The position numbers were made by a program, and so were the translations under genes. The notes below the pieces were generated by a model, which ran no database searches, was not told the origin of the DNA, and saw only the letters and a program-made list of their open reading frames with translations. Below, piece after piece: positions 49,945 to 50,099 of a stretch of 64,000 nt of DNA. Position 1 is the stretch's first letter; each line of letters begins with the position of its first letter. The stretch is taken from NCBI RefSeq assembly GCF_044647545.1, contig NZ_CP172818.1; one strand, written 5' to 3'. The DNA comes from Escherichia coli (GTDB lineage Bacteria > Pseudomonadota > Gammaproteobacteria > Enterobacterales > Enterobacteriaceae).

Positions 49945-50010
49945 ATACCTCTGTAAGTCGCACATAGAGTAAGTTTCGCATGCACAATAGCGTACACTTG
50001 TACGCCGAAC
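49945..50010 (-). promoter_or_regulatory. fabB promoter/operator region with FabR-type palindrome
   Basis: Palindrome gcgtaca-ct-tgtacgc at about 49990..50005 and adjacent agtaagtttcgcatgcacaat segment upstream of fabB. Confidence 0.5.
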
Positions 50011-50099
50011 AAGTCCGATCAGCCAATTAATAGAGAAATTTGCGCAGCCTGGCACACATCGCTAAGATCGAGCCACCGCCTGTAAGACGAGTAACTTAC

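Follow-up and report, generated by a model that had tools for sequence, protein, structure and literature searches.

The fabB-mnmC spacer of an Escherichia coli chromosome carries the known FadR/FabR operator of fabB: a corrected map of the divergent promoter region

In E. coli, both fabA and fabB are activated by FadR and repressed by FabR (PMC4537474). At fabB of strain K-12, the EMSA probe TCTATTAAATGGCTGATCGGACTTGTTCGGCGTACAAGTGTACGCTATTGTGCATTC used by Feng and co-workers was shifted by wild-type FadR and not by a DNA-binding mutant of this protein. The FabR palindrome has been delimited as GGCGTACAAGTGTACGCT on the K-12 fabB probe, where the FadR site is also marked (PMC4537474). A close counterpart has been described in a different genus, Salmonella, where the fabB-STM2379 spacer of Salmonella Typhimurium is orthologous to the E. 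coli fabB-mnmC spacer. There, ChIP-chip and qPCR with FabR revealed that the region named "IR fabB-STM2379" is occupied in vivo, and a microarray analysis of a fabR deletion found fabB up 3.1-fold (PMC4804515).

The locus studied here lies in a 64-kb stretch of an E. coli chromosome, called the window below, which runs from nuo through ackA-pta, hisJQMP, purF and accD to fabB. This is ordinary core chromosome of E. coli: several complete chromosomes of the species match the 801-base segment around the palindrome upstream of fabB at 100% identity, and the fabB/mnmC region occurs once per genome in 5425 of 5426 complete E. coli genomes. The layout is the same in K-12 MG1655 (fabB, 2440385-2441605; mnmC, 2441764-2443770). 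An earlier note on this DNA had described fabB and mnmC as divergent genes whose spacer must also hold the mnmC promoter, and we confirmed both points. The same note had given this spacer as 98 bp, a figure that needs correction, since with the RefSeq GTG start of mnmC at 50100 it measures 158 bp (49942-50099). The spacer contains zero annotated features across the genomes listed. The features that we assign to the region are as follows, with positions relative to the transcription start sites (TSSs) where applicable.

48721-49941, minus strand: fabB coding sequence, beta-ketoacyl-ACP synthase I, 406 aa (open reading frame list; RefSeq annotation of a 100%-identical strain and of K-12).
49948-49952, minus strand: fabB Shine-Dalgarno sequence AGAGG, read from the sequence.
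49977 (G), minus strand: fabB TSS (Kim 2012; 49978 in the class I dRNA-seq set of Romero 2014).
49984-49989, minus strand: fabB -10 hexamer TATTGT, -7 to -12, placed by its distance from the published TSS.
49989-50006, no strand: published FabR 18-mer AGCGTACACTTGTACGCC, the same as in the K-12 fabB probe.
49990-50005, no strand: FabR operator, perfect palindrome GCGTACA-CT-TGTACGC, assigned by inverted-repeat search and K-12 probe identity.
50007-50012, minus strand: putative fabB -35 hexamer TTGTTC, -30 to -35, matching 3 of 6 consensus positions with a 17-bp spacer, assigned from its position.
50008-50024, minus strand: FadR operator GGCTGATCGGACTTGTT, assigned by a FadR weight matrix and K-12 EMSA probe identity.
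50040-50045, plus strand: mnmC -35 hexamer TTGCGC, -35 to -30 of the published TSS, conserved between variable flanks.
50063-50068, plus strand: mnmC -10 hexamer TAAGAT, -12 to -7 (variants TAAGAT, TAGAAT, TAAAAT and TAAACT).
50075 (A), plus strand: mnmC TSS (Kim 2012), with a 5'UTR of 25 nt.
50089-50091, plus strand: Shine-Dalgarno-like GAG, 8 nt before the mnmC GTG, in nearly invariant columns of a 22-genus alignment.
50100-52106, plus strand: mnmC coding sequence, GTG start, 668 aa (RefSeq annotation of the window strain and of K-12).

Within the spacer, the window differs from K-12 only at 49979, 50027, 50051 and 50052, and a further difference (50112) lies inside the mnmC coding sequence. 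None of the spacer differences falls within either operator or any promoter hexamer, and a functional consequence is not expected. Two of them flank the FadR/FabR sites, namely 49979, where this strain has G on the fabB strand, and 50027, where it has A; in the part of PMC4804515 that cites work on this matter, flanks are described as affecting ligand-free FabR binding.

The perfect palindrome reported by the earlier note is present, as an inverted repeat of 7+2+7 nt located 48 nt upstream of the fabB ATG, and its proposed role as the fabB operator agrees with the FabR site marked on the identical K-12 probe (PMC4537474). It occupies positions -13 to -28 relative to the fabB TSS and -70 to -85 relative to the mnmC TSS (centre -77.5), placing it inside the fabB core promoter, between TTGTTC and TATTGT and 2 nt from the FadR 17-mer. 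It is the sole exact match in the window, for which shuffled sequences lead one to expect 0.26 matches even when two mismatches are allowed. With one more base on each side, the segment 49989-50006 has the 18-bp palindromic form AGCGTACA-NN-TGTACGCC that defines the FabR site type. K-12 has the same palindrome, as does the most divergent E. coli sampled, and across an alignment of 22 genera the FabR site is constant except for its two central bases. Judged by this sequence identity, the palindrome is the published FabR operator of fabB. Elsewhere in the window, a near-copy with two mismatches, GCGTACAACTGTTCAC, is found at 25719-25734 inside the yfcC coding sequence and is probably a chance occurrence.

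To locate the FadR site, whose pattern has the core CTGGTnnGAC, we built a weight matrix from the sites in the EMSA probe table of PMC4259882, omitting fabB. With this matrix, 50008-50024 scored 18.4 bits and ranked first of 127,968 positions; with a matrix made from the five fad sites only, fabA being removed as well, it still scored 10.9 bits and ranked third of 127,968. Second-tier matches to the matrix were ATTCGGTCCGATCTGTT (11.3-11.7 bits) and CGCTGGTATTATTACTC (11.0-12.6 bits), at 56127-56143 and 34023-34039 on the minus strand. The block 49982-50025 is the same as the K-12 fabB probe GAATGCACAATAGCGTACACTTGTACGCCGAACAAGTCCGATCAGCCATTTAATAGA. The FadR site is nearly invariant across the 22 genera. 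The most divergent of the E. coli sampled has only 90.6% identity in the spacer, but its 49982-50022 is unaltered, the sole change in the FadR 17-mer being at its outer edge (50023). Matrix and probe thus agree in identifying 50008-50024 as the known FadR site of fabB. It spans -31 to -47 relative to the fabB TSS, and its centre (50016, -39) has the geometry of an activator site, near -40 of the activated promoter. Relative to fabB, the FadR site is upstream of the palindrome, that is, on its mnmC side.

How specific is this combination to fatty-acid genes? We scanned one genome per species, 100,044 species in total, for the composite pattern TTGTTNNGCGTACANNTGTACGC and obtained at least 120 matches. 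Among the 120 matches listed, 74 sit 43-63 nt upstream of fabB and 41 sit 33-68 nt upstream of fabA, so 115 of 120 are accounted for by these two genes; most of the remaining 5 are cut short by a locus end. The hosts of the matches listed belong to the Enterobacterales, Orbales, Vibrionales and Alteromonadales. A divergent mnmC is found at 68 of the 74 fabB loci among the matches listed, with a spacer of 153-172 bp in most. When 22 genera were aligned, the conserved footprints were the fabB Shine-Dalgarno sequence and ATG, the segment 49982-50022 (comprising the -10 hexamer, the FabR site and the FadR site), AAATTTGCGC (50036-50045), TAAGAT, GAG and GTG, and the sequence between these blocks was unconserved. 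The block CATTCAATACCTCT, which carries the fabB Shine-Dalgarno sequence, is near-invariant in this alignment.

Two departures from the usual arrangement were seen among these genomes. Photorhabdus has an insertion of 1.4-3.4 kb that separates mnmC from fabB (L005 2150-4837; also L013, L067, L077 and L090), the L005 insert encoding an AsnC/Lrp-type regulator and a LysE-type exporter; here fabB retains the FadR/FabR site. In Acerihabitans arboris (L016 4797-4819), a gene for an HxlR-family regulator is preceded, at about 39 nt, by a perfect composite FadR/FabR pattern; the gene after it encodes a ketoacyl synthase that shares just 37% identity with FabB. This locus may represent an extra regulon member in Acerihabitans.

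The published transcript maps place both sites within the promoter region of fabB. Kim et al. 2012 (PMC3415461) mapped the fabB TSS to 2439663 on the minus strand of U00096.2 (18 reads, 5'UTR of 36 nt), and Romero et al. 2014 (PMC4681348) reported a class I reverse-strand TSS, RVS_(I)-2439664, with no forward-strand TSS in the spacer. The upstream 51-mers printed by Kim et al. locate both the fabB and the mnmC TSS without coordinate conversion. For Romero et al., we applied an offset of +1978 between U00096.2 and U00096.3, calibrated with micF and gcvB, which puts their fabB site at 49978. The TSS supplements from Cappable-seq, ROSE, Shigella M90T and the Klebsiella tags in Kim 2012 contained no entry for the locus. 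With starts at 49977 (minus strand) and 50075 (plus strand), the two promoters are back-to-back and their starts are 98 bp apart.

In the direction of fabB transcription, the FadR site comes first, then the FabR palindrome, the -10 hexamer and the TSS. The TAnnnT pattern of the -10 hexamer is kept across genera (TATTGT, TAAAGT, TAGAGT, TATCTT), and the proposed -35 hexamer TTGTTC overlaps the promoter-proximal end of the FadR site, within the invariant block. A consensus promoter scan of 49800-50250 called no promoter at its threshold of 9 of 12 positions. The fabB and mnmC promoters each match 7 of 12 consensus positions, below this threshold, which explains why the scan missed both; we therefore rejected the null result as proof that promoters are absent. 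A weak core promoter fits the activator dependence of fabB.

Our model for the locus follows the regulation described for K-12. FadR, a GntR-family sensor of long-chain acyl-CoA, would bind 50008-50024, centred at -39 and overlapping the poor -35 hexamer TTGTTC, and activate fabB transcription; upon release of FadR by long-chain acyl-CoA, this activation would be lost. FabR, of the TetR family, would read the balance between unsaturated and saturated acyl-thioesters and, when bound to 49990-50005, would fill the space between the -35 and -10 hexamers (-13 to -28) and repress fabB, presumably by occluding RNA polymerase. Together, the two regulators would set the level of FabB and hence the unsaturated fatty-acid content of the membrane. 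The divergent gene mnmC has a separate promoter, back-to-back with that of fabB (TTGCGC at 50040, TAAGAT at 50063, +1 at 50075, GTG at 50100). Zhu et al. 2009 and Feng & Cronan 2011 reportedly established that the ligand of FabR is the acyl-thioester pool and that long-chain acyl-CoA releases FadR. The binding, the direction of regulation and the ligands in this model are taken from the literature, to which our analysis adds the probe identity, the positions relative to the published TSSs, the conservation and the genomic specificity. On these grounds, we estimate a probability of about 95% that the locus is the canonical fabB control region, in which a composite operator lies within a weak sigma-70 promoter.

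The other half of the spacer is organized around mnmC. Kim et al. 2012 (PMC3415461) mapped the mnmC TSS to 2439761 on the plus strand of U00096.2, with 278 reads and a 5'UTR of 25 nt, and the corresponding 51-mer ends in GATCGAGCCA. The hexamer TTGCGC is part of the conserved block AAATTTGCGC, and the arrangement TTGnnn-17-TAnnnT is found in 59 of 63 loci, 30-32 nt from the GTG. Consequently, mnmC has its own conserved sigma-70 promoter, TTGCGC-17-TAAGAT, and this core promoter is overlapped by neither operator. On the minus strand, TGTGCCAGGCTGCGCA and the T-rich tail behind it, at 50041-50056, were flagged as a hairpin resembling a terminator. We rejected it as a terminator and judged it a chance occurrence: its place within the mnmC promoter spacer precedes both TSSs and is untranscribed, such hairpins are within the expectation from shuffled sequences (0.4 expected), and two of its bases differ in K-12.

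Could the fabB operator also serve mnmC? The alternative that survives best holds that FadR and/or FabR, bound at this operator, modulate mnmC as well, so that lipid status would be passed on to tRNA wobble-uridine modification. The earlier note had raised this idea, naming a mnmC TSS inside the fabB coding region as evidence against it; the TSS at 50075 is outside the fabB coding sequence, and an influence of fatty-acid regulators on mnmC is best described as unsupported rather than refuted. Class I activators act at positions close to -59. The FadR site covers -51 to -67 of mnmC and its centre, at -59, resembles such positions. The distance from the FadR site to the mnmC -35 hexamer (50025-50039 in the window, with equivalent stretches in loci such as L003, L006, L028, L041 and L060) is also patterned: 45 loci have 14-16 bp and another 14 have 24-25 bp, two classes that are one helical turn apart. 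The longer class, made up of three groups of 9, 4 and 1 loci, is mainly from Yersinia, Serratia and Rahnella. A single clade-level event or a phase constraint between the divergent promoters may account for the two classes. The retention of the divergent gene pair at most fabB loci among the matches listed also speaks for shared control, as does the Salmonella ChIP-chip study, which lists the fabB-STM2379 spacer as a possible target for both genes (PMC4804515).

However, STM2379/mnmC is absent from the Salmonella fabR-deletion expression list in which fabB appears as up-regulated (PMC4804515). The composite operator goes with fabB and fabA and not with mnmC, fabA having other neighbours, and the Orbales fabB loci have the operator with no mnmC match in the DNA examined. 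Conversely, Photorhabdus mnmC, which is set apart from fabB, keeps a core promoter with a TAAAAT -10 hexamer and a different -35-like element, GGTGGTA, with no palindrome nearby. The spacing between the FadR site and the mnmC promoter is not kept in Xenorhabdus or Proteus, and very few events in evolution may lie behind the 10-bp step. Our literature searches for mnmC together with fabB or FadR returned strain tables and a SELEX list only, and found no report linking mnmC expression to FadR. Overall, the evidence points to mnmC being independent of both regulators, and we consider joint control of the two genes unlikely. The more specific version, in which FadR at the fabB site also acts on mnmC, from a centre at -59 in the Enterobacteriaceae and from about one helical turn further away in the Yersiniaceae, seems to us slightly less probable still. 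If it were true, not only FabB but also tRNA wobble-uridine modification, at its MnmC step, would be tuned by the sensing of acyl-CoA.

A different map of the spacer had been drawn by the earlier note, with the FadR site at agtaagtttcgcatgcacaat (49968-49988), between the palindrome and fabB, a 98-bp spacer, and mnmC starting at TTG 50040. This layout has some basis. The TTG opens the longest open reading frame, which is why it was taken as the start codon and the spacer was measured as 98 bp; it was formerly used as the start, both in old annotation and in PDB 3AWI, and a TTG 20 codons before the GTG is conserved in many genera. The FadR assignment fails on several counts, however. The best score of the region around agtaagtttcgcatgcacaat (49964-49992) is -7.5 bits, a value equalled or exceeded by about 3% of window positions, and the segment includes the TSS of fabB, the beginning of its 5'UTR and the greater part of its -10 hexamer. 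Both the motif scan and the published probes put the FadR site on the opposite side, beyond the palindrome, at 50008-50024.

The start codon fares little better. The mapped mnmC transcript begins 35 nt downstream of TTG 50040 and thus cannot be translated from this codon; the TTG is conserved because it belongs to the -35 hexamer. The 17 nt that follow TTGCGC are unconserved across genera, as expected for a promoter spacer and not for coding sequence. In-frame stops occur 0-15 codons before the GTG in Buttiauxella, Erwinia, Pantoea, Kluyvera, Xenorhabdus, Siccibacter, Yersinia and an Enterobacter sp., and GTG 50100 itself is conserved in 62 of 63 loci from many Enterobacterales genera. The note's expectation of an atypical start (GTG or TTG) thus held for the GTG and failed for the TTG. 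Structures agree with this assignment: the alignments of PDB 2QY6 and 3PS9 (E. coli) and of 3PVC (Yersinia pestis) start at or near the residue encoded by the GTG. In contrast, the 688-residue 3AWI aligns from residue 15 of the TTG reading frame and includes the upstream extension; since the TTG of the longest reading frame is actually a -35 hexamer, this construct appears to carry 20 non-native N-terminal residues. Existing data refute the earlier layout, and we regard it as very improbable.

The last alternative denies that the palindrome is a protein operator and takes it for an inverted repeat that arose by chance, or for a hairpin in RNA that acts as an attenuator or terminator. It could appeal to a possible 7-bp stem with a 2-nt loop and to the terminator-like hairpin flagged nearby. 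The mapped TSSs and the specificity seen across genomes already refute it, and its probability is negligible: the palindrome is upstream of both TSSs and is thus transcribed from neither promoter, a 2-nt loop is sterically poor, the exact match is unique in the window with a chance expectation far below one, and nearly all the matches listed lie at a fixed distance upstream of fabB or fabA.

The canonical FadR/FabR control region of fabB therefore remains the preferred reading, and everything at these coordinates has already been described for K-12. The strain has the standard sequence, and control of fabB by FadR and FabR is a textbook case of two regulators governing unsaturated fatty-acid synthesis. 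What is useful is the corrected map: the palindrome has the FadR site on its mnmC side, mnmC is translated from GTG 50100 and has its TSS at 50075, and the TTG is a -35 hexamer.

Compared with the known systems, the locus matches the K-12 fabB promoter most closely: locus and genes are the same, the operator block GCACAATAGCGTACACTTGTACGCCGAACAAGTCCGATCAGCC is identical, and the sites have the same positions relative to the fabB TSS. The composite operator of E. coli fabA consists of AACTGATCGGACTTGTT followed by CAGCGTACACGTGTTAGCT. It resembles that of fabB in having a FadR 17-mer and, directly after it, the FabR site a short way before the gene, and the core CTGATCGGACTTGTTC-GCGTACA--TGT is common to fabA and fabB. 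The two differ in that the fabB palindrome is perfect, while that of E. coli fabA is imperfect (GCGTACACGTGTTAGC), and in that the upstream neighbour of fabA is ycbZ, in the same orientation, whereas fabB has a divergent gene. In many other gamma-proteobacteria, including Xenorhabdus, Morganella and Yersinia, a perfect GCGTACA-NN-TGTACGC is found upstream of fabA (comparison loci L023, L025, L070, L095 and L110, together with Pseudoalteromonas, Moritella, Idiomarina and Salinivibrio). Thus, which gene carries the perfect site differs by lineage, and in E. coli it is fabB.
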